DNA of 64,000 nucleotides. It comes from Candidatus Eiseniibacteriota bacterium (GTDB taxonomy: Bacteria > Eisenbacteria > RBG-16-71-46). Made by a program: the position numbers and the translations under genes. The first letter of the stretch is position 1. The number at the start of each line of letters is the position of its first letter. The notes under the pieces are model-generated. The model saw nothing but the letters and a program-made list of their open reading frames with translations, made no database searches and had not been told where the DNA came from. Shown here piece after piece: positions 9,117 through 42,300 of this stretch. The stretch spans positions 3,136,001 to 3,200,000 of the forward strand of contig OY970178.1 of NCBI GenBank assembly GCA_963707915.1, in the 5' to 3' direction.

Positions 9117-9346
9117 GGAGTGTCCCCATTCCTCGGACCACCGGTCATGACAGGGGCTTCGGCGTGATGGGGTGGACCTCGGGCTTCATCGCCGCGCGGG
9201 GAACAGGTATCTTCGAAGCGCGGCGCCGCGACCGGGAAGACGCAGCTTCCGGCGCGCGCCGCCCGCATCTGGAACCGACGGGCGTCGCGCGGGATGATCA
9301 CCCGCGTCCCCCGGGGGCATCTGCATCATCTCGTCTGGAGGATGGT

Positions 9347-10872
9347 ATGCGAGCTCGGGTCGTCGCCCGGCTTCTCGCCCTGGCGCTGGTGGTGTCGTCG
9401 CCGTGCCCGGCGCAGGCGGGCACGGTGCGCATCGAGAGCGGGGGGATCGATAGGCGTCCCGAGCGGCCTGCCCGGCGTCCTCGTCTTCAGGGGGGTGCCC
9501 TATGCGCGGCCGCCGGTCGGGGCGCTCCGGTGGCAGCCGCCGCAGCCGCCGGCGGCGTGGAGCGGTGTGCGCAGGGCCGACGGCGTCGCTCCGTGCTGCC
9601 AGCAGGTGCCGTGGTCGGCGCCGCCCTGGACGGCGGAGTTCGTCACGCAGGAGCGGACGAGTGAGGACTGCCTCGACCTCAACCTCTGGACCGCGCAAGC
9701 CTCAGGCCGCACGAAGCGCCCGGTGCTCGTGTGGCTGCACGGCGGCGCGCTGACCGGAGGATCCGGCGCGGTGGCCGTGTACGACGGCGCCCAGCTCGCC
9801 CGTCGCGGCCTCGTGGTGGTGACCGTCAACTACCGGTTGGGCGCACTCGGCTTCCTCGCGCATCCCGGGCTGAGCGCGGAGTCCCCGCGGCACGTCTCCG
9901 GGAACTACGGGCTGCTCGATTGCATCGCCGCGCTGCAGTGGGTCCGGCGGAACATCGCGGCCTTCGGTGGCGACCCCGGGCGAGTGACGATCGCCGGGCA
10001 GTCTGCGGGCGCCGACCTGGTCAGCGCGCTGATGCGCTCGCCCCTGGCGACAGGGCTCTTCCACCGCGCCATCCTGATGAGCGGGGGCTCGTCCGACGGA
10101 TACCCTGCCGCTCGCCGAGGCCGAGCGGCAGGGCGCGGCGTGGGCGAGGACCTTCCAGGACAGCTCGCTCGCGGCGCTGCGCGCGCTGCCCGCCGCCGGA
10201 ACCATGGTCGGCGGGCGCTTCGGGCTCGTGGCGGACGGCTGGTGCCTTCCCGCGAACGGATCGACCGCTCCGGTGAGCGACGTGCCGATCCTCTTTGGCC
10301 TGACCGCGGACGAAGGCAGCAGTGACCCCACGTACGGCAAGGTCACGGCCGCGGAGTACGCGGCGTTCGCGCGCTCGCACCTGGACACGCTGGCGGACGA
10401 GGCGCTGCAGCTCTATCCGTTCTCCAACGACGAGCAGGCCGGGCTCGCGCAGAAGCAGAGCATGCGCGACCTCGGGCTCTTCCAGACCCTGCGCTGGGCG
10501 CGCGCGCGCGCCGCTCGGGACCACGCGCCACTGTACGCGTACTATTTCACGCGCGGCATCCCCTGGCCCGAGCATCCGGAGTTCGGCGCGTTCCACAGCT
10601 CCGACGTGCCCTATGCATTCGCGAACCTCCGGCTGCTGCAACGTCCCTGGCAGGAGGCCGATCGCCGCCTGTCCGAGACGCTCGCGGCGTACTGGGTCCG
10701 CTTCGCCCGGACGGGAGATCCGAATGGGCCGGGATTGCCGGAGTGGCCGGCGTTCGATCCCGGCGAGCCGCGGCTGCTGGAGCTGGGCGCGACCGTGGCC
10801 CCGCGCCCGATCCTCGAACCCCGGCGCGTGGAGTTCTACGAGAAGTGCCTGGCGCTTCCCCCGCGCGAGTAG
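9347..10872 (+). pseudogene. Type-B carboxylesterase split by two +1 frameshifts in G runs (or sequencing errors)
   Basis: Signal peptide in one frame, FRGVPYA/SEDCL/HGG/GQSAG in a second, GLTADEG and GAFHSSD in a third; removing one G at 9440-9445 and one at 10083-10087 restores a single ORF. Confidence 0.8.
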
Positions 10873-10943: not shown

Positions 10944-13919
10944 TCACTCCAGCAACGTCAACTTGCGCGTTCCGACCACACGGTCACCGAGCCGCATGCG
11001 CACGAAGTAGAGCCCCGCCGCGAGTCTCCGGCCGCTGGCGTCCGCCGGTCGCCAGGACGCCGACCATTCGCCGGCACTGCGCGCGCCCGGCTCCACCGAC
11101 GCCACCCGACGGCCAGCCATGTCGAGGACGTCGAACGCCACCTCGCCCTCGGCCCGCAACGCGTAGTCGATGCGCAGCGCGCCGCGGCCCGGGTTGGGCG
11201 AGATGCCGCCTAACGCGTCGCGGTCGGGACGTGGCGTGCCTTCCACGGTGACGGTTCCGCTCCGCAGTCCGACCTCGAAGATGCCTGCGCCCCCGTCGCG
11301 CACCACGACGACGCCGTACCAGCCGGTGACCGGCGCCGTGATCACCACGGACTGCTGACTCTCCACCAGCGCGCTCGCGCGACCCGTCCACAAGGGGCCG
11401 CCGGTGGGCGCGAAGACCAGCACCTTCGCATCGAGCCCGGGGCTGTGCGAGAACGTGAGGGTGTAGGTCTGGCCGGCGATCATGGGCGCATCCCAGCTCT
11501 CCACCAGGAAGTCGCTCGTTGTGGTGCGCACGTTGTCGGGCGCGTCGAGCGTCAGCTCCTGATGGCCTGGGAAGTACTCCACCAGTCCCGCATCGGCGCC
11601 GGTCCAGCGGATCGCGGAAGCGTAGTAGGTGGCGAACGAGTTGAAGTTGAAGTCGCCGACCACGACGTCCGCCTCGGGGTACATGGTCGAGTTCGCCAGC
11701 ATCCCGCTCAGGCACGTGCCGATCGCTCCACCTGTCGGCGACGAGTAGGCGTAGAGACTCCAGTCGCTGCTGCTCGTCAGTCCGGCCGCGGCGATCGCCG
11801 TCCAGTAGGGCAACGCCGGCGCGAACGAGACGAACGCCCTTGGCTCGGTCGGCACGATGAACGCCGGCCCCGGCGTGAGCGACACGATCGGCGGGCAGGT
11901 GCGCACCCTGATCGTGTAGGCGTCCGCCGCTCCGTTCTCGTTGACGACAACGACTCCATAGAATCCGCTGCTCGGCGCCGTGTACGTGTGGGCGCCCGCG
12001 CCGCTCTCGAACTCGGCCATCTGGCGGCCTGCCCAGTACTCGTAGCCGGTCTCGTTGCGGAACAGCATGAGCGTGAGGGAGGCGGCCGGACCGCTCGAGA
12101 GTTCGAACTCGTAGGCCTGCCCGGCCTCCAGGTACACGTCCCAGCAACCCACGACGTCGTCGGGTCCGGTGGTGCGCTGCGTGACGTTGTTGTCATTGGC
12201 GATGATCAGGTTCTCGCCGGAATCCCACTGCACGGCTGTCGACGACACGCTTTCGGCGCGGGGCTGCGCGGCGTTCAGATAGTAGGTGCCGGGCGTGTTG
12301 TAGTTGAAGTCGCCGACGACGACGGGTTGCCGCCCTGAGGGCACGCCATAGGACGTGGCAAAGGGCAGCGTGGTGCAGCTTGGCCACAGCGAACTGAGGT
12401 TGTCGCCGTTGAGGTTCAGCACCCATTCCGGGCTTTCGCCGCGCAATGCGGCGGCGGTCCAGTATCGGGCGGTCTGCGCGATCGAGAAGTACGCCGTCAT
12501 CACCATGCCGGTCGAGGCGGTAACGCCGGGCGAGAGCGCGGTCGGGAACGAGCAGTCGCCGAAGGTAACGCTGTAGTCGCCGGCAACCGCCGCATCGTTG
12601 ACGACCGCCACGCCGTACCATCCGCTCACCGGCGCGGTGTAGGTGGTCGGCCCCGCCCCGCCCCCTGGCGAGCTCAGGACGGCCGCGGACCTACCGGCAA
12701 AGTACGCGCCGCCGCCGCTGTTGGCGAACAACAGCAACGTCCGACCGATGGGGAGTGAGAGGATGAAGCGGTACGTGTGGCCGGCGTGCAAGTAGACGTC
12801 GTAGAAATCGGCGAGATCGCTGCCCGCCATGGACTCGAAATGCGGGAGGCTGTTGGTTTCGAGGATCCCCTGCGTACCGGTGAACTCGACTTCGCCCGCG
12901 GCCGCGCCGCTGAACAGGTGCGGGTAGACGAAGTACCAGCCCGCGGGTGAGAAGCTGAAGTCGCCCACCGTGAGGTCCACGCTGCCGGGGCCGAACCCCG
13001 AGGTGGCGAACAGCCCGTCGAAGCACGTCGGCGGACTGCCGCCGCTCGGCATGTCGTAGAGGCCGAGGTCCCAGTCTGCGGCCGAGGACCGGACCGCACA
13101 TCCCATCCAGAACGGGTCCCTCGCCTCGAAGGCCAGGTTCCCGTTCGGCAGAGCGACGACAACCGGCGTCTGCGCCGTGAGGGCCGAGGGGATCGGGCAG
13201 GTCGAAGCCGTGACGCCCAGCTTGTACGAGAGGGCGGTGCCGGCGTCGTTGGTGAGCACGAGGCCGTAGTAACCGGTCGTTGTCGGCGTGAAGGTCGTTG
13301 TGCCGGTGACGTCGAAGTGGGCTGCGCTGCGGCCGGCCCAGTAAGTGCCGCCCGTGATGTTGGCGAACAACATCAGGTGGGCCCCCGACCAGTTCGTGGG
13401 GAAGAAGTCGAACGTGTAGGTCGTGCCCGTGGACATGTAGACGTCCCAGACGCGGATCAGGTCGGATGTGGCCATCGATCCGGAGATCGCGGAGCCGTTG
13501 GGTACGATGACGTCGGGGCCGTCGTCCCACTGCACGGTCGCATTCCCTCCGGAGTATCGGGACACCGAGGGGTAGTAGGTGCCCGGCGCGTTGTGGTTGA
13601 AATCGCCGACGACGAAGTCCAGCACGCCGACTCCGGCGGTCGATGACGCCAGCAGGCCGGTGGGCGTGCAGGAAGGCTCTGGCGTGGTGCCCGAGTAGAG
13701 GAAGAGGTCCCAGTCCGCGCCCGGCTGCGGTCGCACCGCAACGGCAGTCCAGAAGGCCGAGGACTGCGCGAACTGACAGAGTGCCGGCGTGCTCGATACC
13801 GGCACCGCAGTGCCCGAGGTCAGCACTTGGGTCGGACATGCCGCACGCGCCGGGCCGGCGAGCGCGAGCGCAAGTACGACGGCGCTCGTCGTGTGGTGGA
13901 GAGCGATTCGGAGAGTCAT
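10944..13919 (-). CDS. 991-aa secreted protein with four tandem ~215-aa beta-rich repeats and a C-terminal FlgD-like Ig domain
   Basis: Signal peptide ending ARA; repeats share W(T/M)xxA, GDF, (W/Y)D, GR and G(Y/W/F)YG motifs; C-terminus SPNPGRG...DMAGRRV...LAAGLYFVRM. Confidence 0.85.
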   Translation of the reverse strand: MTLRIALHHTTSAVVLALALAGPARAACPTQVLTSGTAVPVSSTPALCQFAQSSAFWTAVAVRPQPGADWDLFLYSGTTPEPSCTPTGLLASSTAGVGVLDFVVGDFNHNAPGTYYPSVSRYSGGNATVQWDDGPDVIVPNGSAISGSMATSDLIRVWDVYMSTGTTYTFDFFPTNWSGAHLMLFANITGGTYWAGRSAAHFDVTGTTTFTPTTTGYYGLVLTNDAGTALSYKLGVTASTCPIPSALTAQTPVVVALPNGNLAFEARDPFWMGCAVRSSAADWDLGLYDMPSGGSPPTCFDGLFATSGFGPGSVDLTVGDFSFSPAGWYFVYPHLFSGAAAGEVEFTGTQGILETNSLPHFESMAGSDLADFYDVYLHAGHTYRFILSLPIGRTLLLFANSGGGAYFAGRSAAVLSSPGGGAGPTTYTAPVSGWYGVAVVNDAAVAGDYSVTFGDCSFPTALSPGVTASTGMVMTAYFSIAQTARYWTAAALRGESPEWVLNLNGDNLSSLWPSCTTLPFATSYGVPSGRQPVVVGDFNYNTPGTYYLNAAQPRAESVSSTAVQWDSGENLIIANDNNVTQRTTGPDDVVGCWDVYLEAGQAYEFELSSGPAASLTLMLFRNETGYEYWAGRQMAEFESGAGAHTYTAPSSGFYGVVVVNENGAADAYTIRVRTCPPIVSLTPGPAFIVPTEPRAFVSFAPALPYWTAIAAAGLTSSSDWSLYAYSSPTGGAIGTCLSGMLANSTMYPEADVVVGDFNFNSFATYYASAIRWTGADAGLVEYFPGHQELTLDAPDNVRTTTSDFLVESWDAPMIAGQTYTLTFSHSPGLDAKVLVFAPTGGPLWTGRASALVESQQSVVITAPVTGWYGVVVVRDGGAGIFEVGLRSGTVTVEGTPRPDRDALGGISPNPGRGALRIDYALRAEGEVAFDVLDMAGRRVASVEPGARSAGEWSASWRPADASGRRLAAGLYFVRMRLGDRVVGTRKLTLLE

Positions 13920-14536
13920 CGCGAGCCTCCCTTCGCGATGCGACGAAGCTCCGCCTGCTTCTCGAGCTGCGCGGGCGCCAGCGGCGTGGGCGCGGGGTTG
14001 AGGATCGCGCCGGCCGCCAGCCGGTTCTCCGATGCAGACGACGGCGCACTGCGCGCGTGCGCCCGCTTCTCGGTGATCGCCGCGGCCCGCTCCGCCCCCA
14101 GCTTCGGATCCAGCGGCCGTGACGTAACGAGCGGGCCGGGCCTGGTGCGTACGTCACCCGCGGGCGCAGCGCCCGCGGGCAGCCCGAGCATCGTGGCGCG
14201 ATTGCGCTGCTGCATCCTCAGCAGCGCGCCAGACTGCTTCTCGGCCTGCGAATTCTCCGTCGGCCGGTCGGGGCCCGGCGGGCGCGAGGTCGCGACCGGC
14301 GGGGCCTTCGCATCGCCGAGCGCGAACGCCGCTGCCGGCGCCGGAATCGCCGCGTGGATCGACTCCAGCTTGATGCGTTGAGCGGCCGTGGGCGTGGGCG
14401 ATAGCGAAGGCGGCAGTTCGGTGCGCACCTCGGCGGGCTTGCCGGTGGCGTCCGGCGAGGAGTCACCGGCGAGCGCCGGATCGGGTGAGGCGCACAACGC
14501 TACCGCGCTGGCGAGAACCAGGAGAGCGCATTTCAT
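13916..14536 (-). CDS. Secreted low-complexity hypothetical protein, coupled to the 991-aa gene
   Basis: GGAGGAG RBS; MKCALLVLASAVALCASPDPALA signal peptide; ATGA overlap at 13916-13919. Confidence 0.7.
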   Translation of the reverse strand: MKCALLVLASAVALCASPDPALAGDSSPDATGKPAEVRTELPPSLSPTPTAAQRIKLESIHAAIPAPAAAFALGDAKAPPVATSRPPGPDRPTENSQAEKQSGALLRMQQRNRATMLGLPAGAAPAGDVRTRPGPLVTSRPLDPKLGAERAAAITEKRAHARSAPSSASENRLAAGAILNPAPTPLAPAQLEKQAELRRIAKGGSR

Positions 14537-14585
14537 GGGAGACTCCTCCGCGTCGAGGTGAAGAATCGGCATGGGGCTACCGCTC

Positions 14586-14612
14586 AAACGACCCGAGGCC
14601 GCGCGAATCACA
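14586..14612 (-). promoter_or_regulatory. Candidate ECF promoter TGTGATTC-N14-CGTTT for the divergent secreted operon
   Basis: Minus strand TGTGATTCGCGCGGCCTCGGGTCGTTT; same boxes and spacing as 17826-17852. Confidence 0.6.
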
Positions 14613-14894
14613 CGGGAAGTGCGGGCGCGAGGGATCCCCGAGGCGGGGCGGACGGGCCGTGCCGGGGGCCACCGGGAACGAGCTTGCGTCGGGCGAAGGG
14701 CCCGGCTTTACTTGCGCTCACGACGAGGGGTCTGCGTCCGCAAATGACCCCGAGCGGGGCCGGGACGTTCCGCCGGAGCCCGCGCCGGCGAACTCCCGAG
14801 CCGCGGCTGGAGGGTGGGTGTCGAATCCCGAAGGTCAACTCCACTGGGTCGGCGGGGCGCCCGCGGGCGCCGCGCCCCGTTGATCGACTTTTCC

Positions 14895-17858
14895 GTGGCC
14901 GCCACCCGGGCGGGGCCGGTCCGGCTGGGGATGCTCCTCGCCGTGGTGTTGCTCGCGAGCGGCGCGGGTTCCACGCCGTCCGCGCCGGGGCGGGCCGCGG
15001 CGCCCGAGGTCGCCGGGCGCACGTCGCCGGGGGCTTCGGCCCCGGATCGCACTCCCGTCCAGCGCCGCACGCTCGCGCTCCTCGATTCGCTCTGGGCCGC
15101 GGGGAGGACCGATACGCTGTGGACGTGCGCGGAGGCCGCGTTGCGGACGGCCCGCGTCCGCGGCGACGCGAGGCTCACGCTCGATCTGCTGGCGACGCGC
15201 GGGCGGATGCGCGCGAGCCTCGGACTGATCGCGGAATCCGAGCCCGATCTACGAGCCGCCATCCGCATGGCGCGATCGGCCGGCGACGACTCGACGCTGC
15301 GGGCCAGCCTGCGATGGCTCGCCTATGCCCTGGATCGCGAGGGCAGGAACGACGAGGCGCTCCGCGCGTGGCAGCGTCTTCGCGCGCACTCGGAGCGGGC
15401 CGGCGACCTCGTGCACCAGGCGTGGGCCTGGTCGGGCATCGGCTTCCTGCGCTGGCAGTCGGGCGACCCCCGGGCCGCCGAGAGCGCCGACCTGCGGGCG
15501 CTGGGCCTCTTCCGCGCGGCGCACGACGAGCGCGGCGAGGCGTTCGTGCTGAACGCGCTGGGTGTGGTGGCGAACGCGCAGGGTGACTACCTCCGGGCCG
15601 ACCAGCGCTTCCGGCTCGCGGCCGCGAAGGCCGACCGTGCGCGGTGGACGTGGCTGGCGGCCGTTGCCTGGAACAACGTCGCGTCGCTCGAGCAATCGCT
15701 GGGCGATCCGGGGCGCGCCCGCACCCTGTACGTGAAGGCCGCCGAGTTGCATCGCCGCGCAGGTGACCTGGCGGAAGCCCTGGTGACGGGCGAGAACGTC
15801 GCGCGCTGCGACGCGGCGCTGGGCGCGTACGACGAGGCCGCCGCGGAGCTCGAGCTGCTCTTCCGGGAGTGTCGCGAGCACGGGATCGCACACCTGGAGG
15901 GCGGGCTTCGCAACGCGCTCGCCGACGTGCGCACCCGCCAGGGTCGCCCGCACGCGGCCGCCCGTCTCTATCGGGCGAACCTCGAGCGTGGAGCCTCGAT
16001 CACGGCGGATGCGCATCAGGAAGCGGTGCTCGGACTCGCCCGCACGCTTGCCGCCGTGGACAGCGTGCCGGCTGGCCTGGCGCTGATGCGCCGGGAGTCG
16101 AGCTGGATTCGCACGGCGGCGGACGCGATCGGTCGCGCCGAATGCGACGAGGAGCTGGGCGACTTGCTGCTGCGAGCAGGTCGCCCGCAGGAGGCGCTGC
16201 GGGTCCTGCTCTCCGCGGCCGCCGAAGCTCGCCGGCTGGGGGTCGGTGCGCCCCGCATCCGGGCTCTGGCCGGGGCCGCCCGGGCCGCGGAGCGTCTCGG
16301 CATGCGCGATCGCGCGCTGGCGCTGCTCCGCGAGGCACTCGGCGTGTGGGAAGTGGAGCGGGGCCTGCCCGCCGATCCCGAGTGGCGTGAGGTGCGTGGT
16401 GTCGTTGCCGCGGACGTGGTTGCGAGCCTGGGAAGGCTGCTGCTCGTGCTCCCGCCCGACGCCTCCCCTGCCGAGCGCGCCCGGCACGCATTCGACGCGG
16501 TGCAGGCGTTCAAGGCGCGCACGTTGATGGAGCGCATGCTCGGCCCCGCGCGCGGCGACACGTCGTCACCCGCGGCGATCCCGACCACCTGCACGGAGCT
16601 ACAGCGTCGGGTGCTTCGCCCCGGGGAGCTGATGCTCGACTTCTACCTCGGGGCGGATTCCGGGCTGGTGTTCGTCGTGAGTCGCGAGGAGTGTCGCGCC
16701 TACCGCATTCCGCCGCGGCGCGAACTCGAGTCGGTGCTCGCGCCGTACTCGCGAGCCGTCGCCGCGGCCGACGGGAGTGCGGAGCCCGCGAGGGGGCGCG
16801 ACGCCGGTCTGGCGCTCGCACATCGCAGCGTGCGCGAGTTGCTGCTCGGGCCGGCGCTCGATCGCATCGCGCGGAGCCGCAGCCTGATCGTGGTTCCCGA
16901 CGGCATCCTCGATCGCCTAAGCTTCGCCGCGCTGCTCGACGACCCTTCGCCGGACCCGGCGGCGCGTCGGCTCGCGCTGCAGACCGTGCCGTCCGCGTCG
17001 ATCCTCGCCCGACTGCGAGCGACGCTGGCCGACCGCCCGGCGTGGGTGCGTGACGGGCCGTCGATCCTCGCTCTCGCCGGCGGCAGGGACGCGAGCGGCA
17101 ACCGACTCTCCGGCGCGCTGGGCGAAGTCCGGGACCTCGCCTCCGACTTCCGCCGCGTCTCCCTCGCGCTGCCCGGGACGCCGTCGCCCCCGCGGGCGGG
17201 TCCGGTGGACTCGATCCGCGCGGCGGAACTCCGCGGGACGGCGCTGCTCGAGCGCGCGGCGGGTTACGATGTGCTCCACTTCGCGGCGCACACCACGATC
17301 GACGAGCAACGTCCCTGGCGATCCTCGCTCCGCCTCGGCGACGAGACCGACCCGGGGCGGCTACTGCGCCTGACCGGCTCGGCCATCGCGCGATCGACGC
17401 TCTCCGCGCGGCTGGTCGTCCTGTCGACCTGTCGTTCTGCCGACGGCCGGTTGCTGCCGGGGGAAGGCGTGCAGGGGCCGGCGGCGGCGTTCCTGGTCGC
17501 TGGGGTTCCGGCCGTGGTCGCGGCGCTGTGGCCGGTGCAGGACGCCGATGCCCGCTGGATGATGCGACGCCTCTACCTCCACCTGGCGGAGGGTGCGACC
17601 GTGGGCGAAGCGCTGTCGCTGGCCCAGTCGGACGCGCGCAGGACCGCCGAGCGATTCCGTTCGGCGCGCTGGGCGGGCTATGTCGTCGTCGGCGACGGCG
17701 ACTTGCGGATTCCGATTCGACGCAGGACGCTTGCGGAACGCTTCGGGCTCCCGGCCGCGCTCCTGCTGTTCGGATGCGCGGCGGTCCTCGGCTGGCTTCT
17801 CCGGCCACCTGACATCAAGAGGGAATGTGATTCCCGCGAACCGTCGGCGTTTCCATGA
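14895..17858 (+). CDS. TPR-CHAT (caspase-like) protease with putative signal peptide and C-terminal TM anchor
   Basis: TPR-like helical repeats; CHAT motifs IVVPDGILDRLSF, VLHFAAH (His), LVVLSTC (Cys), AGVPAVVAALWPV, WAGY; start uncertain (14814-14931). Confidence 0.9.
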   Translation: MAATRAGPVRLGMLLAVVLLASGAGSTPSAPGRAAAPEVAGRTSPGASAPDRTPVQRRTLALLDSLWAAGRTDTLWTCAEAALRTARVRGDARLTLDLLATRGRMRASLGLIAESEPDLRAAIRMARSAGDDSTLRASLRWLAYALDREGRNDEALRAWQRLRAHSERAGDLVHQAWAWSGIGFLRWQSGDPRAAESADLRALGLFRAAHDERGEAFVLNALGVVANAQGDYLRADQRFRLAAAKADRARWTWLAAVAWNNVASLEQSLGDPGRARTLYVKAAELHRRAGDLAEALVTGENVARCDAALGAYDEAAAELELLFRECREHGIAHLEGGLRNALADVRTRQGRPHAAARLYRANLERGASITADAHQEAVLGLARTLAAVDSVPAGLALMRRESSWIRTAADAIGRAECDEELGDLLLRAGRPQEALRVLLSAAAEARRLGVGAPRIRALAGAARAAERLGMRDRALALLREALGVWEVERGLPADPEWREVRGVVAADVVASLGRLLLVLPPDASPAERARHAFDAVQAFKARTLMERMLGPARGDTSSPAAIPTTCTELQRRVLRPGELMLDFYLGADSGLVFVVSREECRAYRIPPRRELESVLAPYSRAVAAADGSAEPARGRDAGLALAHRSVRELLLGPALDRIARSRSLIVVPDGILDRLSFAALLDDPSPDPAARRLALQTVPSASILARLRATLADRPAWVRDGPSILALAGGRDASGNRLSGALGEVRDLASDFRRVSLALPGTPSPPRAGPVDSIRAAELRGTALLERAAGYDVLHFAAHTTIDEQRPWRSSLRLGDETDPGRLLRLTGSAIARSTLSARLVVLSTCRSADGRLLPGEGVQGPAAAFLVAGVPAVVAALWPVQDADARWMMRRLYLHLAEGATVGEALSLAQSDARRTAERFRSARWAGYVVVGDGDLRIPIRRRTLAERFGLPAALLLFGCAAVLGWLLRPPDIKRECDSREPSAFP
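17826..17852 (+). promoter_or_regulatory. Candidate autoregulatory ECF promoter directly upstream of the sigma gene
   Basis: TGTGATTCCCGCGAACCGTCGGCGTTT ends 2 nt before ATGATG (17855), compatible with a leaderless transcript. Confidence 0.6.
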
Positions 17859-18463
17859 TGAAGCCGGACGCTGAGGATCCCCGAAGCGACGAGGATCTGG
17901 CGCTCCTGGCCGCGGGCTGCCCGGATAGTCCGGCCGGGAGGAAGGCGGCGTGCACGGTTCTCGAACGCTACGCACGGGTCGTCTACCGCTGGTGCTATTC
18001 CTACGTCGGCAACGTCGAACAGGCCGAGGATCTCGCGCAGGACGTGCTGCTACGCGCCTACCGTCACCTCGGGGACTTCGAGGGATGGGGACGATTCTCG
18101 GCCTGGCTCTTCGTGATCACGCGCAACCTCTGCCTGGACGCGGTGCGGCGCGACGCGCGTCGGAAGCGCGAGGAGATCGAGTTGGATCGGCTCGCCGACC
18201 CCGCTCCGGGGCCGGAGGCCGAGTTGGCCGCGCGCCGGGAAGAGGAGCGCACGTTGTCGCTGATTCGAGAGCATCTGTCGGAGCAGGAGCAGGACGCGCT
18301 CTGGCTCCGCTGCTTCGAACGCATGCCCCTCGACGCCATCACCCGTGTGCTCGGTATCACGCAACGCAGTGGAGCGCGCGCGGTGCTCCAGAACGCCCGG
18401 CGCAAGCTCCGCGCGGCGTTGGGCGATGCGCATCCGCTGGCCCGGGAGGGGGACGATGACTGA
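17855..18463 (+). CDS. ECF RNA polymerase sigma-70 factor
   Basis: Region 2 AEDLAQDVLLRAY...FSAWLFVITRNLCLD; region 4 LSEQEQ...ARRKLR. Confidence 0.93.
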   Translation: MMKPDAEDPRSDEDLALLAAGCPDSPAGRKAACTVLERYARVVYRWCYSYVGNVEQAEDLAQDVLLRAYRHLGDFEGWGRFSAWLFVITRNLCLDAVRRDARRKREEIELDRLADPAPGPEAELAARREEERTLSLIREHLSEQEQDALWLRCFERMPLDAITRVLGITQRSGARAVLQNARRKLRAALGDAHPLAREGDDD

Positions 18464-19277
18464 ACGATGCCCGACGCTGCGCGAGCTCCTCGCGCTGGTG
18501 GACCGCGTGCCCGGTGGCGACGCCGCCCACGGCGTGAGCGGCGCCCCGAGCCAGCCGCCGCCGATCCCCACCGACGCGGGCGCCTCCAACCCGCCGCTCC
18601 CGGATGACACCTGGGCGCACGTCCGCAGTTGTCCGCGGTGCCGGAGTCTGCTGGCGGCCTACCACGAGTTCGAGTCGCCGCAGGTCCGAGATCGCTGCGA
18701 GGGCGAGCCCGAGGCAGTGGCGCGCCTGGGCGCATTCCTCGAGTCGATGATCGTCGGGCCCGGCGCCGCCCCGACCGTGGCCGCGATCCCCGGGGCCCGA
18801 CGGCTTGCGGGTGGCAGGGCGGGGGAAGCCACGCGGGTCGGGGAGATCTTCCGTCTACTCACCGGGTCCGGCCGCCTGGTTCCCGTGGCCGGCGCGGCAG
18901 CCATCGTCGCGGCGGTGTTCCTGTTGGTGCGCGGGAACGTGGATACGGCTCTGCGCTCCACCGTGCTTCGCGAGCAGCCGGCCGAATCCGCAGTCGGCAG
19001 TATCGTCGTCTTCCCACCGCGCCCGGTTGCGGGACGCGGGCTCGAGTTGCGCTGGAGGCGCGGGGGACCCGACGACACCTACCGGGTCCGCCTGCTCGAT
19101 TCCGGGATGCGCGAGGTCGGGTGTGTGGAGGCGGGACGTGAGACGCTTCTGGTACTCGCCACGTCGGCGCTTACCGGCCCGCGCCTCCCGGTCTTCTGGC
19201 AGGTGGAAGCGCTGCGCGAGGGCGATCGCGTCGGCGATTCTCCTCCCGGCGAGCTGCCTCTGCTGCGTGGGCGGTAG
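18456..19277 (+). CDS. Putative zinc-binding anti-sigma factor (HxxxCxxC, one TM, C-terminal beta domain)
   Basis: Overlaps sigma stop; HVRSCPRC motif; TM VPVAGAAAIVAAVFLLV; C-terminal LRWR...YRVRL...FWQVEA. Confidence 0.75.
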   Translation: MTERCPTLRELLALVDRVPGGDAAHGVSGAPSQPPPIPTDAGASNPPLPDDTWAHVRSCPRCRSLLAAYHEFESPQVRDRCEGEPEAVARLGAFLESMIVGPGAAPTVAAIPGARRLAGGRAGEATRVGEIFRLLTGSGRLVPVAGAAAIVAAVFLLVRGNVDTALRSTVLREQPAESAVGSIVVFPPRPVAGRGLELRWRRGGPDDTYRVRLLDSGMREVGCVEAGRETLLVLATSALTGPRLPVFWQVEALREGDRVGDSPPGELPLLRGR

Positions 19278-19379: not shown

Positions 19380-19564
19380 TGGTGCGCCGCCTAGGACTTG
19401 AACCTAGAACCTACTGATCAAGAGACTCTGATCGCCGCCAGCACGCAGCGGTTGTCGCGCAACGCACTGCGAAGAACGGCAAGAAGTTGGCCCGGGAACG
19501 AACGGGCATCTGCGGGCATCCTCGGGCACTTGAAGGGGCACGAAACGGGGAAGGTTTCCCCGCT
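19380..19564 (-). repeat. att-like direct repeat copy 1: 45-bp tRNA-Lys 3' half plus 140-bp arm
   Basis: 19380-19424 matches tRNA 25993-26037 with 1 mismatch; the full 185 bp matches 23855-24039 with 9 mismatches by manual count. Confidence 0.92.
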
Positions 19565-19685: not shown

Positions 19686-20855
19686 ATGTTCCGGCGCTTC
19701 CTCGACCTCCCCGCCCTTGCTGCCGAGCGGAGTTTCTTCCTGCTCGGGCCTCGCCAGACGGGCAAGTCCACGCTGTTGCGGGCCTCCTTTCCGGATGCGC
19801 TGTTTCTCGACTTGCTGGACGCGCAGACGTTCCGCTCGTTGGCGGTGGCCCCGAACCTGATCGGTGAGCGCGCGCGAGCATTGAAGGGGCGTCACCGCGT
19901 TGTCATCGTCGATGAGATCCAGAAGTTGCCCGAGCTGCTTGACGAGATTCACCGGCTCATGGAACTCGACAAGTCCCTGCGCTTCATCCTCACCGGGAGC
20001 AGCACGAGGAAGCTCCGCACTCGCGGGCGAAACCTGCTCGGTGGCAGAGCCGGGCTGGTGCGGATGCATCCGATCGCATACCCGGAGCTGGGGACTGCCA
20101 GCCGACCTCATTCCTGGGCGGACATGCTTCGATGGGGCGGGCTTCCCTCGGTGCTCGGTTCGAAGACGTCGAAGGACGATCTCCAGGCCTACGTGGGCCT
20201 CTATCTCCAGGAGGAGATCAGGGCCGAGGGGTTGGCGCGCTCCGTTCCGAACTTCAGTCGGTTCCTCGAGACCGCGGCCGCCATGAACGGCGAGACCCTG
20301 AACTACACGAAACTGGGCAACGATGCACAGCTCTCACCGCGGACCGTGCGGGACTACTTCCAGATCCTGCAGGACACGTTGGTGGGCGATCTGCTTCCTC
20401 CCTTCCAGCACACCCGCACGCGCAAGGCCGTTGCCACGGAGAAGTTCTACTTCTTCGACATCGGGATGACGAACGCTCTCGTCGAGCGTTGGGCCGTTTC
20501 GCCGCGCACGCCGGAATACGGTCGTCTGCTCGAGCACCTGGTCGAGCGCGAGATCAGGGCCTCGATGGACTACCTCAGAAACGACCGTCATCTGTTCTTC
20601 TGGCGCACGCTGTCGCGGCTGGAAGTCGACTTCGTCGTCGCGGAAGGGCAGAAGCCCGTGGTGGCGATCGAGGTGAAGGCTTCGCGGTCGGTCTCCCAGC
20701 AGGACCTCAAAGGCCTCCGGGCGTTCGCCGAAGACTGGCCGCGGGTTCGCAAGGTCGTGGTGTCGCTGGAGCCCCACCTACGCACGACGGAGGATGGCGT
20801 GGAGATCGTGCCGGTGGAGGAGTTCCTGGCTCGGCTCTGGGGTAAGGCGATTTGA
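19686..20855 (+). CDS. AAA+ ATP-binding protein with DUF4143 (nuclease-like) C-terminus
   Basis: Walker A GPRQTGKST, IVDEIQK, LTGSS, LLGGRA, KFYFFDIG, EVDFV...IEVK. Confidence 0.9.
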   Translation: MFRRFLDLPALAAERSFFLLGPRQTGKSTLLRASFPDALFLDLLDAQTFRSLAVAPNLIGERARALKGRHRVVIVDEIQKLPELLDEIHRLMELDKSLRFILTGSSTRKLRTRGRNLLGGRAGLVRMHPIAYPELGTASRPHSWADMLRWGGLPSVLGSKTSKDDLQAYVGLYLQEEIRAEGLARSVPNFSRFLETAAAMNGETLNYTKLGNDAQLSPRTVRDYFQILQDTLVGDLLPPFQHTRTRKAVATEKFYFFDIGMTNALVERWAVSPRTPEYGRLLEHLVEREIRASMDYLRNDRHLFFWRTLSRLEVDFVVAEGQKPVVAIEVKASRSVSQQDLKGLRAFAEDWPRVRKVVVSLEPHLRTTEDGVEIVPVEEFLARLWGKAI

Positions 20856-21861: not shown

Positions 21862-23114
21862 GTGCGCCCATGAACTCCCGGAGCAGGTGCGTCTTGCTGC
21901 TCGGAATGGTCCCGTCCATGCTCCCGACCGCGGTCGCGGCCGGGACGATGGACTGAGAGGGCCCCTACGTCTGTGCTCCCTGGTACTGCTACGAGTATAA
22001 CGGGCGATACTGGTACAAACACTGGTACGGCGGTTCGTCGGAATACGTGTACGTATCCGGCTCGACGACCGGTGTCACCACCGCGGCGCTGTCAAGTGCC
22101 GCCTCGCCCGCGGTCTCGCAGTGGACCACCCGGACATACGGACTTCCCCGTCTGACGTTCTACCAGAGCACCATCGAGACGTACTCGTACGTCAAGTTCG
22201 TCTCCGACCAGACCTGGCTTGCCGCCGGGCTGAGTCCCACTGGGCGGGCGGTCACGTTCTGGGTCGAGAACGGCAATGGGACCATCGCCCATTGCCGTAT
22301 CTGGCTGCGGATTCGATCGGCTGACCAACCGGGATGGTGCGCCGATTGCAATGCGCCGGGCGCTGATTGCATCACGCCGCCCCTCAAGTACGACCTGCCA
22401 TCGATTTTGGCGCACGAGTTCGGTCACTGGTGGGTCGTAGGTGACACCTACGACCTGACCTGCGGCGAGAACATGGATCTCATGTACTGGATTGCATCGC
22501 CGGGGATCGTGAACCGCGTTCCATCATCCGAGGACGTGGCGAGCGCGCAATCACTCTACGATCAGCCTGTCGACGTGCTGGCCTCGGTCTCTCGCAGCGA
22601 TGCCACGCCGGAGAACGTCACGCTCGTCTGGTCGCTCGGGGCGGGCGTGAGTTCGGTGGTTGTCGAGCGCTGTGTGCCGGGCGCGGGATGGTCCTCGCTC
22701 GGGACGGCGAGCATCGACGGCACCGGATTCGCGAGCTATGTCGATGCGAACGTCGTGCCTGGCACCCGCTACGGATACCGGCTCCTGCTCTCGACTGGCG
22801 GCGGCGATGTGGTGGCCGGCGAGACCTGGGTGGATGTCCCGCGGTGGGAATTGACGCTCGGAGCGGTCACGCCCAACCCCTCGTGCGACGGCCTTCTGCG
22901 CCTGCACTACGTGCTCGGGGACGCGGCGCCGGCGTCGCTAGACGTGATGGACGTCGGCGGCCGATTGGCGCGGCACGTCGATGTCGGTGCCGCCGGTAGG
23001 GGGGCTCACACGGTCTGTCTGGGGGACGGCGCCCCGTTCGCCGCCGGGCTCTACTGGGTGCGCCTGAGGCAAGGCACGCGCATCCGGACGACGCGCGCCA
23101 TCGTCGTGCGATGA
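21858..23114 (+). pseudogene. Secreted metzincin-like metalloprotease with FlgD-like CTD, interrupted by in-frame TGA at 21954-21956
   Basis: ATG 21858 overlaps upstream stop; 32-aa signal-like leader, TGA, then the same frame continues to LAHEFGHWW, Met-turn-like DLMY and TPNP...AAGLYWVRL. Confidence 0.7.
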
Positions 23115-23285: not shown

Positions 23286-23588
23286 GTGGAGAATGCGCCG
23301 CTCGTGGGCGCGGCCGAGCTGCGGCTGCCTGGCGCCAACCCGCGCATGGGCAGCGTCCGTTTCGGCTATCGCACGCCGCAGGTGGGACGCATCGAGGCGA
23401 GCATCCACGACATCGTGGGCCGCAAGCCGGCCCGCCCGGTGTCGGCCTGGCAGCCGGCCGGCGAGCAACTGGGCGGCTGGGATGCCTGCGACGATCGCGG
23501 CGAACGCGTTCATGCGGGCGTCTGCTTCCTGAGCGTGACCCTCGACAGCCAGCCCGTGGGCGGGAAGAAGCTCCTGATCGTGCGGTAG
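23286..23588 (+). pseudogene. Orphan, degenerate FlgD-like C-terminal domain fragment
   Basis: ANP...IHDIVGR...WDACDDRGERVHAGVCFL...KKLLIVR; no signal peptide or N-terminal domain. Confidence 0.6.
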
Positions 23589-23854: not shown

Positions 23855-24039
23855 TGGTGCGCCGCCTAGGACTTGAACCTAGAACCTACTGATTAAGAGA
23901 CTCTGACCGCCGCCAGCACGAAGCGATTGTCGCGCAACGTATTGCGAAGAACGGCAAGAAGTTGGCCCGGGAACAAACGGGCATCCGCGGGCATCCTCGG
24001 GCATTTGAAGGGGCACGAAACGGGGAAGGTTTCCCCGCT
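23855..24039 (-). repeat. att-like direct repeat copy 2: 45-bp tRNA-Lys 3' half plus 140-bp arm
   Basis: 23855-23899 is identical to tRNA 25993-26037; arm nearly identical to copy 1. Confidence 0.92.
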
Positions 24040-24317: not shown

Positions 24318-24824
24318 CTATCGCACCAAGACCACCCCGGTGTTGGCCGTGGCCGAGCCAAGTCGGAATCTCACGACGTACTTCCCAGCAGGCATCACCG
24401 CCCCAGTCTCGCTGACTCCTGACCAGTAGTAGTCGACGCGCCCATCAACCACCGGCAGCGATCGCGAGTAGGCGCGGCGTCCGGCCGCATCGAAGACATC
24501 GACGGTTGCCAATCCCGAGCGCGCGATCGCGGCCCGCTGGTCAAGCGTGGGGTAGGTGTCGCCGCTATGCGTCAGCAGCGCCAAGTAGCCACCGATGAGG
24601 AGGACGTTCGCGATCTGGCCAGCCGTCTGCCGGGTGACGACCTTTTCCTGTGTTCCCCCGACGCCGATGTTGCCGGGATCGGTTCCGCCGTGGCCCGGGT
24701 CAATCCAGACGTCGATCTGTGCCTCGGCTCGTAGCGACCAGAGAGCTCCACTGAGCAGCAGCAGGGACGAAGACAGCGCCAGCGAGGAGAAAGACCGGAA
24801 CAGACTGCGAGAAGAGTGGATCAT
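24318..24824 (-). pseudogene. N-acetylmuramoyl-L-alanine amidase N-half fused to a partial FlgD-like CTD (probable internal deletion)
   Basis: Signal peptide, VWIDPGHGG..DPG, EK, TLDQRAAIA, then directly VDVFDAAGRR...MPAGKYVVRF; the SxHxN motif and catalytic Glu region are absent. Confidence 0.7.
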
Positions 24825-25687
24825 GACGCCCTCCCAGCCTTGGTGCCGCGTCTTGGCACCAACTCGATCACCTTCTGCCACGAGGCGTCCTCGCCGTTGC
24901 CGGAAGGCACCTCGAACAGCAGACGAGTGCGGTCAATCCAATGCGGCTCACGTTCGGCCTCAGGCGTGTCGGTCAAGCGGCACTTGCCGCCGCGCCGATC
25001 GAAGAGCCACAGATCGGCCGCGGCGACTTCCTCGTATTGATTGACGGACGTTGGCTTGGACACCACAAGTAGCCGGGAATCGGGGGACCAGCTGAAGTCG
25101 TAGTCGGCGTGAATCGAGAGCGTGTCAACGACGCGAACCTGTCCCGACGGAATGGAGACGAGCACAAGTACGCACGTCGGTCGTCCGTAGAGGACGCCTG
25201 CCACAGCGAGCGTCCGCGAATCCGGGGCCCAGCGGAACCTGGATACGAGCGCACCGAACTCAGGCCGAAGGGTGCGCCGAGATGCGACGTCGACGACGCA
25301 GAGCAGCCAGGGGCGCTGTCTCGACTCCCAGGTCGTGCACGCGATCCACTTGCCGTCGGGAGACCACCGTGGCTGGGATAGCGACCGTTCAAGCAGCGGC
25401 CGGGATGAACCTGTCGCTGAATCCTCGAGGAAGATGTGGGGGTGATGCTGCGCGTCGCTCTTGACGACGGCTTGAAGTGAACCGGGGCCTGGCGCTACCC
25501 GCGCATCATCGAGTTCGCGGAGCAGCCGATGGGTGGAGACGAAGGGGCGATCGGCGGAGGTCGCGGGCCTTCTCGTCTGCACCCTCCAATCGCACGCGCC
25601 GAGCGGCGACGCCGGGCCGGTGGCCTTGGTGGCCGCCGCCAAGAGCAGCAGGCCAGCGCTCACGATTCCTACGAAGTATCGGGCCAT
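24821..25687 (-). CDS. Secreted TolB-like (PD40) beta-propeller protein
   Basis: Signal peptide; PRWSPDGKWIA, WAPDS, WSPDS and LTDTPEAEREPHW; ATGA overlap with amidase gene. Confidence 0.8.
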   Translation of the reverse strand: MARYFVGIVSAGLLLLAAATKATGPASPLGACDWRVQTRRPATSADRPFVSTHRLLRELDDARVAPGPGSLQAVVKSDAQHHPHIFLEDSATGSSRPLLERSLSQPRWSPDGKWIACTTWESRQRPWLLCVVDVASRRTLRPEFGALVSRFRWAPDSRTLAVAGVLYGRPTCVLVLVSIPSGQVRVVDTLSIHADYDFSWSPDSRLLVVSKPTSVNQYEEVAAADLWLFDRRGGKCRLTDTPEAEREPHWIDRTRLLFEVPSGNGEDASWQKVIELVPRRGTKAGRAS

Positions 25688-25992: not shown

Positions 25993-26068
25993 TGGTGCGC
26001 CGCCTAGGACTTGAACCTAGAACCTACTGATTAAGAGTCAGTTGCTCTACCAATTGAGCTAGCGGCGC
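25993..26068 (-). tRNA. tRNA-Lys (anticodon CTT)
   Basis: 76 nt GCGCCGCTAGCTCAATTGGTAGAGCAACTGACTCTTAATCAGTAGGTTCTAGGTTCAAGTCCTAGGCGGCGCACCA; cloverleaf, TTC loop, encoded CCA. Confidence 0.97.
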
Positions 26069-40274: not shown

Positions 40275-41435
40275 TCAGCGCCGGCGGAGACTCACGCCGC
40301 CCGAGCCGGTGTCCACCTTGATCCGGCCGTGCCCCTCGCCGATGGTGCCCTGCAGGGAGCCGTGCTCCTTGCTCGTGACGGTCATGGCGTAGTCGGTCTC
40401 GATGCCGCCGCTGCCGCAATCGAAGTCCACCGTGGCGTCGAGGTCGTCGGGTCCCACGATGGTCACTCCGCCCGAGCCGGTGTCCACCAGCAGGGAGCGC
40501 GGCGCGGCGAGCAGGCCCACGTGGACGCCGCCGCTGCCGGTGTCGATGCTGATCCGGCCGGAGCGCACGTCGTCGAGCCCGACGCTGCCCGAGCCGGTGT
40601 CGACGAGCACGTCCTCCGACTCGACGCTGTGGCCCGTGACCCCGCCCGAACCGGTGTCCACCTTCAGGCGGCTGCCCGCCACGTCCGAGAGCTCGACCCC
40701 GCCCGAGCCGGTGTCGACCAGGATGTCCCCCCGGTTCCCGCGCAGCACCACGCGGCCCGAGCCGGTGTCCACGACCAGCGAGCCGGTCGTGCGCTCGGCC
40801 TCGACCGACGCGGCCGCCACGTCGATGGTCAGGTCACCGTCCACCCCCAGCGCCACGGCTTCGCCCACGCCGAGACGGAACGTGGTCTGGCAGCCGCGCG
40901 GCAGCCGCACCTCGATGTCGGCCCAGGCGTGCAGGCCGTGGCCCGAGCCCGCGACGGTCACGCGGTGGCCGCCGAAGGGGAAGCCCCCGCCGTGCTCGAG
41001 GCAGCCGTCGGAGCCGACGTGGAGGGTCGAGCTCCCCCAGCCGTGCATCGAGCTCCAGGGCTTGGTCCGCGGGTAGATCACGCGGTTGCCCGGGTAGATG
41101 ACGTGCAGCCGGGACTCGCCGCCCCGCTCGACCTGCTCGGCGCGGAGCCGGGCCGCATCCGGGCCGCAGCGGGTCACCAGCACCTCGGCGCGCGTGCCGG
41201 TGCCCTCGACGATGCGTACCGCGCCCGCGAGGTTGCAGATCTCGATGCGCTGGCCCTGCAGCCAGAAGCGCTGCACGGCCGGTTCGGCGCAGGCCATCAT
41301 CGCCAGGAACGAGGCGTTGGCCAGCAGGGCGATGAGCGCGATGGTCAGCATGCTCGCGATGGCGAAGAGGACGGCGAGGGCGCCGGGGCCCGCACGGCGC
41401 TGGCGCTGGGTCATCGTCAGGACGGCACTTCTCAT
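40275..41435 (-). CDS. DUF4097 family beta-strand repeat protein
   Basis: Eight (V/I/F)D(T/C)GSG repeats; N-terminal hydrophobic leader; GAAGGAG RBS. Confidence 0.85.
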   Translation of the reverse strand: MRSAVLTMTQRQRRAGPGALAVLFAIASMLTIALIALLANASFLAMMACAEPAVQRFWLQGQRIEICNLAGAVRIVEGTGTRAEVLVTRCGPDAARLRAEQVERGGESRLHVIYPGNRVIYPRTKPWSSMHGWGSSTLHVGSDGCLEHGGGFPFGGHRVTVAGSGHGLHAWADIEVRLPRGCQTTFRLGVGEAVALGVDGDLTIDVAAASVEAERTTGSLVVDTGSGRVVLRGNRGDILVDTGSGGVELSDVAGSRLKVDTGSGGVTGHSVESEDVLVDTGSGSVGLDDVRSGRISIDTGSGGVHVGLLAAPRSLLVDTGSGGVTIVGPDDLDATVDFDCGSGGIETDYAMTVTSKEHGSLQGTIGEGHGRIKVDTGSGGVSLRRR

Positions 41436-41492
41436 GGCAGCGGCTCCTTCGATGGTCGGGTGGGGAGCGGACATGGGTCCGGTCACTCTGGG

Positions 41493-41519
41493 TTACGCAG
41501 CGGGGGCAAGGATGGTTTC
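41493..41519 (-). promoter_or_regulatory. Candidate ECF promoter GAAACC-N16-CGTAA
   Basis: AAC/CGT ECF consensus upstream of the divergent DUF4097 gene. Confidence 0.5.
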
Positions 41520-41689
41520 GTTTCCCCGTCCGGTTCTGACACGGTCCGGGGCGGAATGGTTGGCAGCCGGGGGCCGTCGCGCCCCCGGCAACCTGCGGAG
41601 TGCCCCCGCCGTAGAGCGGGACGAGGCCCCCGACGCGGGGCAGGGATCGCCCCTGCCATCCGGTGTCGCTTTCCCGCTATCCTGCCTTC

Positions 41690-41714
41690 CAACCTTCCGT
41701 CCGGGCGGGCCGTC
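41690..41714 (+). promoter_or_regulatory. Candidate ECF promoter CAACC-N16-CGTC upstream of sigma gene
   Basis: AAC/CGT boxes ending 7 nt before ATG 41722. Confidence 0.5.
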
Positions 41715-41721
41715 GAAGAGG

Positions 41722-42300
41722 ATGCATGGAGTGTCGCCCCGGGTGACCAGCGCCAGCGGAACGCCAGAGGTGGCCCCGGTGGCCACCGACCTCGAGGAGG
41801 CCGCGCTGGCCGCGGCCGGGGACACCCGTGCGTTCGAGCGGCTCTACCGCGCCCACGTGGCGCGCATCCACGGCCTGGTCCGGCGGATGCTGGGTACGGA
41901 TGAAGCGACGGAGGTCACTCAGGACGTGTTCGTCAGAGCCTGGCAGAAGATCGGGAGCTTCCGGGGCGAGGCCGCCTTCGGGACCTGGCTGCACCGGGTG
42001 GCGGTGAACGTGGTGCTCACCCGCCGGGCCCAGCTCGGCACCCGCCGCAGCCGCTTCATCAGCGACGAGCAGGTGCTGGAGAACGTGCCCGCCCGCCCGG
42101 GCTCGCGGGACTTCGGCATCGATTTCGAGGGCGCCGTCGCCCGCCTGCCCGAGGGGGCGCGGCACATCTTCGTCCTGCACGACGTCGAGGGCTACCGCCA
42201 CGAGGAGATCGCCGGGCTGCTCGGCGTCACCTCGGGCACGACCAAGGCCCAGCTCCACCGTGCGCGCATGCTGCTGCGCGGCCACCTCGGGACCGCGTGA
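41722..42300 (+). CDS. ECF RNA polymerase sigma factor
   Basis: AFERLY, EVTQDVFVRAW, FGTWLHRVAVN, LHDVEGYRHEEIA, TKAQLHRAR. Confidence 0.93.
   Translation: MHGVSPRVTSASGTPEVAPVATDLEEAALAAAGDTRAFERLYRAHVARIHGLVRRMLGTDEATEVTQDVFVRAWQKIGSFRGEAAFGTWLHRVAVNVVLTRRAQLGTRRSRFISDEQVLENVPARPGSRDFGIDFEGAVARLPEGARHIFVLHDVEGYRHEEIAGLLGVTSGTTKAQLHRARMLLRGHLGTA

Follow-up and report, generated by a model that had tools for sequence, protein, structure and literature searches.

The 64,000-nucleotide stretch analysed here (positions 3,136,001 to 3,200,000 of contig OY970178.1, assembly GCA_963707915.1, from a Candidatus Eiseniibacteriota bacterium; hereafter the window) carries three overlapping plus-strand genes that encode, in this order, a TPR-CHAT protein, a sigma factor of the extracytoplasmic function (ECF) type and an anti-sigma factor. 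This cassette is most likely a portable switch that acts across the cell envelope by regulated intramembrane proteolysis. Judging by sequence, the TPR-CHAT protein would be exported and, in most members, anchored by a C-terminal helix, with the protease outside the inner membrane, while the single-pass anti-sigma would hold the ECF sigma by its zinc domain, as expected from the family. The periplasmic Fn3 domain of the anti-sigma is modelled to dock onto two CHAT helices; a signal, probably a protein or peptide, would be bound by the TPR superhelix, and the His-Cys dyad would cut the disordered linker of the anti-sigma after Arg172. A host RseP-like protease would then, by analogy with the DdvA system, cut the membrane helix and free the sigma. 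Two copies of a promoter motif are observed, from which the sigma would transcribe its own gene together with that of the anti-sigma (motif in the CHAT 3′ end) and a neighbouring secreted operon.

A preliminary description of this DNA had reported the three genes, including an intact His and Cys in the CHAT protein and an HxxxCxxC single-membrane-helix anti-sigma, together with a divergent two-gene secreted operon, and all five open reading frames (ORFs) lie where it had placed them (Table 1). The triad genes overlap at both junctions; on the minus strand, an ORF of 206 aa overlaps one of 991 aa to form the operon divergent from the triad. The genome is a single contig of 3.62 Mb, 94.8% complete, and holds a second copy of the triad whose neighbours differ and are collinear. 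The description had also called the circuit independent of CRISPR, and neither a Cas1 match nor a CRISPR-like array was found in this 94.8%-complete genome.

The neighbourhood of CHAT, ECF sigma and anti-sigma, for which the preliminary description proposed a search, is conserved. The locus set comprises 82 loci, namely 80 of the best near-full-length CHAT matches among 150 listed and the two of this genome; two own-genome rows and one contig-edge fragment were left out. Sigma and anti-sigma genes are adjacent in 67 of the 82, arranged CHAT-sigma-anti-sigma in 57 and sigma-anti-sigma-CHAT in 10; two further loci have the sigma only, one the anti-sigma only and 12 neither, several of the last lying on short contigs. 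With adequate flanks, 51 of 60 loci are triads. The 67 triads are spread over 43 genomes, 29 genera and 7 families of one phylum; as these genomes are related, their loci do not count as independent cases. Of 60 more loci, picked reciprocally by anti-sigma score, 57 have an adjacent sigma and 38 a CHAT gene within 4.5 kb. At the level of whole genomes, 58 of the 61 with a strong anti-sigma match (E 1e-30) also have a strong CHAT match (E 1e-55; 202 genomes searched). When every kind of CHAT gene is counted, 114 of 151 genomes of the phylum have one, and a profile made from three close CHAT proteins matched 78 of 202 genomes. The distribution is patchy (one of six same-genus genomes), and a single-protein locus search returned one relative, on the same contig as locus L005.

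The sigma factor consists of sigma2 and sigma4 only and is preceded by an autoregulatory -35/-10 promoter. The preliminary description had invoked a promoter-like motif linking the two sides and spelled none out; the best candidate is TGTGATTC-N14-CGTTT, which occurs exactly twice in the 3.62-Mb genome, before the sigma gene and before the divergent operon (two matches in the window against 0.02 expected from shuffles). The two copies bear out the proposed link, but the plus-strand copy precedes the sigma gene and not the CHAT gene. Because it lies inside the CHAT 3′ end, sigma and anti-sigma would be autoregulated and CHAT would stand outside the regulon. In many loci (e.g. L006, L007, L009 and L012) the sigma start follows the -10 box by 5-7 nt, which points to a leaderless mRNA, and the CHAT gene ends on the TGA that also belongs to the -35 box; the sigma mRNA of the window is probably leaderless too.

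Of 69 loci, 65 could be assigned a -35 box of this type before the sigma gene, whereas the -10 box is variable; TGTGAT/TGTGAC -35 boxes are described as common to several ECF groups (PMC7826278). A further copy of the locus's own -10 box stands ahead of the downstream gene in 21 of 60 loci, where swapped boxes predict 3.9, and ahead of the divergent gene upstream in 16 of 58, where they predict 2.5, which makes 37 recurrences against 6.4 expected for the two regions together; in the control orientation it recurs in 2 of 60 (3.1 expected). The same-strand upstream region (13 of 58) was left uncounted, seven of its hits being the sigma's own promoter in sigma-anti-sigma-CHAT loci. Furthermore, residue 94 of the sigma covaries with the first base of the -10 box (z 13.4), and covariation between residues and bases is the accepted way to tie ECF residues to promoter positions (PMC7776599). 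Asp, Ser or Thr at this residue pairs with C in 25 of 28 cases, other residues in 5 of 37, and the rule taken from training loci held in 30 of 32 held-out cases, which were taken from the loci passing the -35 filter (35 of 57). The motif copies and the recurrence of the locus-own -10 box make it very likely that this sigma drives both promoters, the divergent operon included, as had been supposed. Relaxed motif scans for a wider regulon gave no convincing extra promoter; five sites were inspected and none lay clearly before a gene.

The 991-aa product combines a signal peptide, four PPC-like repeats of about 215 aa (anchors at aa 56, 270, 486 and 705) and a C-terminal tail resembling FlgD_ig and the tails of the type IX secretion system (T9SS); TIGR04183 stays under its cut-off (19.4 vs 23), and domain searches found no catalytic domain. 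In the ESM Atlas the protein leads to PPC clusters at 0.93, with PF04151 on 53-93% of their members, and some of its 123 homologs are fused to M4, S8 or C25 peptidases. For the 206-aa ORF a word search of the database returned itself alone, but tblastn in the fetched loci did find homologs: one of 38% identity precedes the cargo homolog in L087 (E 8e-14), and similar ORFs do so in L085, L086 and L096. The 991-aa protein, which the preliminary description had taken as the output of the circuit, is not a fixed output, as both cargo and orientation vary. A conserved divergent cargo was considered and rejected: family CHAT/anti-sigma genes occur in none of the 20 top loci with 991-aa homologs, nine of which were available at the full 19.9 kb and the others shorter. 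These homologs travel with a small first ORF of similar type but without the triad. Operon and triad are distinct modules that a promoter joins here.

Across the 67 triads, a tailed gene lies divergently upstream in 15 and collinearly downstream in 36. Of 52 ORFs behind matched promoters, 29, mainly triad-adjacent ones, were scanned, as were both neighbours of the second triad; FlgD_ig was matched by 15 of the 29 and no profile by 8, with FG-GAP, CARDB, DUF11, a C10 peptidase, an outer-membrane protein barrel or OmpA among the other matches. The output slot is swappable and holds, depending on the locus, differing secreted proteins, mostly T9SS-tailed. SprA and PorV are both matched in the genome, which also contains 98 tailed genes, so that T9SS-like export is plausible. 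Of 46 long triad loci, 40 have a tailed gene nearby, compared with 37% of 20-kb windows drawn at random from this genome; this is weak evidence since tail density differs among genomes.

In the CHAT protein a signal-like hydrophobic region (h-region) is followed by a TPR superhelix, then by a pseudo-caspase and a caspase domain and, at the C-terminus, by a membrane helix; an alternative start, GTG 14895, would add an Arg-containing n-region. A hydrophobic signal-like stretch is found 590-650 residues before the CHAT domain in 76 of the 82 proteins, four of the remaining six being truncated or frameshifted, and a signal-like h-region shows up in 30 of 30, compared with 1 of 30 in a TPR control window. 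The C-terminal helix is present in 63 of 79 complete family CHATs and is followed by at least two Arg or Lys residues in 61 of these 63, a tail of the positive-inside type. Because of the signal-like N-terminus and the C-terminal helix, the protease is, by hydropathy, most likely periplasmic and on the same side as the C-terminal domain of the anti-sigma. There is also a subgroup with a signal-like start and no C-terminal helix (L060, L065-L067, L070, L071, L073, L075, L076, L078 and L082-L084), in several loci of which the zinc motif of the anti-sigma is lost.

The structure model of the CHAT protein (predicted local distance difference test, pLDDT, 89.5) shows the TPR, pseudo-caspase and caspase fold, and separase, Csx29 and DdvA are among its top structure matches: Z 24.9, root-mean-square deviation (rmsd) 3.5 and 319 aligned residues for the caspase region against Chaetomium thermophilum separase (5fby), Z 25.1, rmsd 10.2 and 574 aligned against Csx29 (8eey), and Z 20.1, rmsd 4.4 and 603 aligned against DdvA (8rw5). 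Two invariant acids, Glu732 and Asp871, are candidates for the S1 pocket of an enzyme with an Arg substrate; in clan CD, S1 acids are described at the alpha1 position, and regions of the type in which Glu732 and Asp871 lie set S1 specificity (PMC4357240).

The anti-sigma has HxxxCxxC at residues 55-62, to which C5 is added, one membrane helix (142-158), a linker predicted to be disordered (162-177) and a periplasmic Fn3-like domain (181-266). From knowledge of the family, its zinc domain would very probably hold the sigma. Only R172, W200 and Y209 are invariant in 66 anti-sigmas. R172 sits in linker of pLDDT<50, and in the family the residue lies 12-13 residues (median) past the membrane helix. 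A loose form of the Arg motif occurs in 62 of 66 linkers (shuffle mean 28, maximum 41) and a strict form in 43 of 66 (mean 5.0, maximum 13). The Arg is aligned in 54 of 60 held-out anti-sigmas, with a hydrophobic-Arg-small motif nearby in the other six, and is present in 141 of 141 library representatives, including 114 of 114 below 60% identity to the training set; nine long Fn3-repeat hits had been dropped from these representatives, and the ranking profile contains the Arg, a slight bias towards it. At E 1e-30 the anti-sigma profile matches 893 clusters of 50% identity, some of which are Fn3-repeat proteins. A second kind of CHAT/sigma/anti-sigma cluster (L003 99-6191, L071 12695-17396) has a divergent CHAT without the C-terminal helix, and the L071 anti-sigma carries a hydrophobic-Arg-Gly motif after its membrane helix.

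The co-folding of CHAT and anti-sigma suggested in the preliminary description gave a modelled complex of CHAT with anti-sigma residues 159-270 that scored 0.76 against 0.02 for the best control. Of 157 solved complexes 116 attain this mark, as do 2 of 215 mismatched pairs, figures that are rough with the alignments used; runs share at least 42% of contacts, and the pLDDT of the partner is at least 73. In the model the Fn3 domain uses M218 for docking; 109 of 126 relatives have Leu at this residue. Structure searches found no solved complex of this pair, although separase and Craspase complexes in the PDB could bias the model. By sequence, the three nearest anti-sigmas include the one from the locus of the nearest CHAT in 43 of 64 cases against 4.8% by chance, to which shared ancestry contributes; the nearest CHAT is in the same genome in just 1 of 64. 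On the model, it is probable, and we are fairly confident, that CHAT binds the anti-sigma.

On balance we favour a regulated cut by CHAT at R172, which the sequence of the linker and the analogy with related proteases suggest. Similarly, CHAT would somewhat more plausibly than otherwise be the site-1 protease, with a host RseP-like protease completing the release; a candidate for the latter is an M50 gene elsewhere in the genome (PF02163 match, E 7e-57). The preliminary description had presented the locus as self-contained, with sensor, switch and output in about 8 kb, but a periplasmic protease is limited to the first cut, and the unit is not self-contained because release should also need the intramembrane protease. 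A wider proposal, that phylum-wide such cassettes are orthogonal plug-ins, each sensing its own extracellular protein, cutting only its cognate anti-sigma at the fixed Arg and controlling its own T9SS-type cargo, with -10 specificity set by one sigma residue, is put forward as a tentative possibility that we hold to be rather less probable than its negation.

Several observations weigh against the favoured mechanism. The confident contacts of the modelled complex lie on the Fn3 domain and R172 is not among them, so that the model does not extend to engagement of the active site. Separase requires Arg at P1 and binds it through D2151, 41 residues after the catalytic Cys (PMC10317155); the D2151 position maps 8 residues after the conserved Trp and is mostly Ala here, acidic in a minority. 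The S1 Asp of separase was accordingly rejected as the source of Arg specificity, the aligned invariant Asp not being D2151, and, with that position not conserved, the case for Arg is based on Glu732, Asp871 and analogy. Csx29 enzymes, which are related, are reported to cleave after Met or Leu (PMC11506125), and for DdvA the same source reports that dyad mutants have no phenotype at rest and that autoproteolysis was not seen. The covariation of sigma residue and -10 base is not significant on independent tree pairs (6 supported pairs, p 0.625), a test that is underpowered, and no matched promoter precedes the neighbours of the second triad of this genome. Matching of orphans is mixed: the best-matching orphan sigma/anti-sigma pair lies in the same genome for 3 of 8 orphan CHATs and in another genome for five, two of which have no own-genome orphan pair in the set. 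Finally, no CHAT lies within 4.5 kb in 22 of the 60 held-out anti-sigma loci (13 of the 38 whose flanks are full), and the Arg is kept in every one of the 22; this calls for either a CHAT acting in trans or another protease.

The distant interface and these orphan pairs would also suit a different role, in which CHAT is a protector or co-sensor like RseB, the dyad acts on the ligand or the cargo and some other Arg-specific envelope protease makes the cut. Other secreted peptidases (C10, C1) do occur beside some triads, and a SAVED-CHAT enzyme is reported to cleave a second protease rather than a sigma or its inhibitor (bioRxiv 2023.06.23.546230). However, for 21 of the 22 orphan pairs a family CHAT is present elsewhere in the genome, and the genome of the remaining pair is 69% complete. 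In genome G110 the orphan CHAT closest to the clade of the window best matches that genome's own orphan sigma/anti-sigma pair (rank 1 of 22), which has D94 and a near-identical promoter. Moreover, unrelated ZAS anti-sigmas without a CHAT lack the Arg motif (6 of 6), and the one unrelated anti-sigma next to a CHAT has it (1/1). We consider the protector role unlikely.

A cut at R172 might instead be a constitutive maturation step by CHAT, after which the fragments stay associated until a signal separates them. Other anti-sigmas are described as cleaving themselves constitutively in the periplasm and separating when a signal induces it (PMC11506125), and the CHAT-Fn3 complex, if as stable as modelled, would suit such a clamp. 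Yet the cut would leave about 14 residues outside the membrane (the family median being 12-13), giving little hold and probably an RseP substrate, and other TPR-CHATs are reported to be inactive at rest (PMC11506125, PMC10028731), making constitutive maturation improbable.

Among known systems the closest is DdvA/DdvS of Myxococcus xanthus, of which the present cassette is a split variant, and it is a closer precedent than the type III-E CRISPR effector invoked in the preliminary description. The two share a CHCC zinc anti-sigma with one membrane helix, an ECF sigma, a periplasmic TPR-CHAT with a His-Cys dyad and a proposed site-1 cut in the juxtamembrane linker followed by RseP; for DdvA, cleavage by RseP is shown and site-1 cleavage by CHAT is described as a proposal (PMC11506125; PMC6061681; PDB 8ROT, 8RW5). 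In contrast, DdvA is one fused chain proposed to cut itself in a dimer, whereas protease and anti-sigma are separate genes here, with CHAT having, by sequence, its own signal peptide and C-terminal anchor and the anti-sigma ending in an Fn3-like domain. The outputs of DdvA/DdvS are CBASS and CRISPR; those here are secreted proteins, the motif standing only before the sigma gene and the secreted operon. In the type III-E Craspase (Csx29, Csx30 and CASP-sigma), a TPR-CHAT likewise pre-binds and cuts a sigma inhibitor encoded nearby, but that system is cytoplasmic, RNA-guided through Cas7-11 and cuts after Met or Leu (PMC10028731); of the type III-E marks, no Cas1 match and no array were found in the genome, the Cas7-11 and Csx30 profiles not having been searched.

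Three further systems resemble parts of the cassette. HetF of Anabaena is a CHAT protease that cuts a regulator, PatU3, after Arg followed by a small residue (R117-S118), although PatU3 regulates division and differentiation and is not a membrane anti-sigma (PMC9457339). DegS/RseA/RseP of Escherichia coli shares the separate, membrane-anchored periplasmic site-1 protease with a sensor domain, the single-pass anti-sigma and the second cut by RseP (PMC8103513); DegS, however, is a PDZ-gated serine protease (PMC8103513), whereas the candidate here would be a clan CD cysteine protease that is gated by its TPRs and serves a single cassette, of which there are several paralogs per genome. ECF54 of Actinobacteria is likewise an ECF sigma that has a conserved TPR-CHAT gene in its vicinity and for which control by proteolysis is suggested, but is proposed to act without an anti-sigma and has subtilase and carboxypeptidase-regulatory genes nearby (PMC7826278; PMC8999054); here an anti-sigma is present, and no such neighbours occur in the window. 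Caspase genes together with ECF sigmas are mentioned in PMC8195603. A literature search with little coverage of subscription journals and supplements returned no publication that describes the Arg motif or a separate, exported TPR-CHAT accompanied by an Fn3-type anti-sigma.

The triad ends about 100 bp to the left of the last copy of a tRNA-Lys 3′ half, and the full tRNA-Lys gene with its two 3′-half copies marks a tRNA-anchored integration hot spot; GC content is lower between about 4 and 26 kb of the window. The second triad is flanked by genes for two tailed proteins, one of the FG-GAP type and one of the papain family, and transposase-like ORFs lie close by. That the cassette is an anti-phage alarm like DdvA/DdvS, which controls a CBASS-CRISPR island (PMC11506125), with defence genes as its real outputs, would fit its position next to the tRNA-Lys repeat, the candidate defence gene that follows (Table 1) and the patchy distribution, but is very improbable, as no Pfam defence family was found among the 29 genes behind locus-matched promoters (PADLOC not searched), a scan of the window found no sigma motif before the PDC-S01-like gene and no Cas1 was found in the genome.

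Table 1 Features of the triad and its surroundings (window positions unless stated otherwise)
Feature	Position	Strand	Details
991-aa secreted output protein	10944-13919	-	PF13860 (FlgD_ig) E 5e-8
206-aa Ala/Pro-rich secreted ORF	13916-14536	-	First of divergent operon; Shine-Dalgarno GGAGGAG before ATG; ATGA overlap with next gene
ECF-type promoter TGTGATTC-N14-CGTTT	14612-14586	-	Before divergent operon
TPR-CHAT protein	14931-17858	+	975 aa from ATG 14931; PF12770 E 4e-41; TPR_12 match
Two CHAT helices docking anti-sigma Fn3 in model	16731-16841	+	aa 601-612 and 625-637
Glu732, candidate S1 acid for Arg substrate	17124-17126	+	Helix alpha1; invariant, 64/64
Catalytic His783	17277-17279	+	Kept in 82/82 loci
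Catalytic Cys834	17430-17432	+	TGT; kept in 81/82 loci, remaining one truncated
Asp871, second candidate S1 acid	17541-17543	+	After invariant Trp867 (loop L5 region); invariant, 64/64
C-terminal CHAT membrane helix	17742-17801	+	Basic residues after helix
Autoregulatory ECF promoter TGTGATTC-N14-CGTTT	17826-17852	+	Inside CHAT 3′ end, 5 nt before sigma ATG 17858
ECF sigma	17855/17858-18463	+	Sigma70_r2 E 3e-20; TIGR02937 E 7e-27
Sigma Asp94	18137-18139	+	Counted from ATG 17858; covaries with first -10 base across family
Anti-sigma	18456-19277	+	273 aa, ATG 18456; CHCC zinc motif C5, H55, C59, C62
Anti-sigma Arg172, candidate P1	18969-18971	+	Invariant; periplasmic linker; motif hydrophobic-R-small
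Carboxylesterase in two frames	9294-10325 and 10204-10872	+	Frameshift or assembly error
tRNA-Lys 3′ half, two downstream copies	23855-23935, 19380-19460		
AAA_14/DUF4143 gene	19686-20855	+	PADLOC candidate PDC-S01 match, E 4e-63; between tRNA repeats
Three more genes with same C-terminal tail	22047-23114, 23301-23585, 24321-24881	+, +, -	Inside tRNA-Lys island
tRNA-Lys(CTT)	25993-26068	-	Full gene
Further ECF sigma and zinc anti-sigma	41098-43025	+	Without CHAT, without Arg motif
Second triad	G000:C1:439828-444036 (L004 9829-14037)		Same family; sigma R at position 94; GACTC -10 box

The idea raised by DdvA, of a periplasmic CHAT domain as site-1 protease for an anti-sigma, could not be tested because its signal is unknown and enzyme and substrate are one chain (PMC11506125). 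Here the two are separate, a docking surface is predicted, R172 is the single candidate for the scissile residue and the promoter for a reporter is defined; dozens of natural paralogs allow specificity swaps, so that the signalling idea becomes directly testable. If the proposed mechanism is true, a caspase/separase-fold enzyme would be a dedicated site-1 protease acting on a separate substrate, and caspase/separase-like signalling would extend to trans-envelope gene control outside immunity. In that case the cassettes could also supply orthogonal protease-sigma switches, and they would account for the way in which an uncultured phylum turns on single members of its tailed secreted proteins, of which each genome has about 100.

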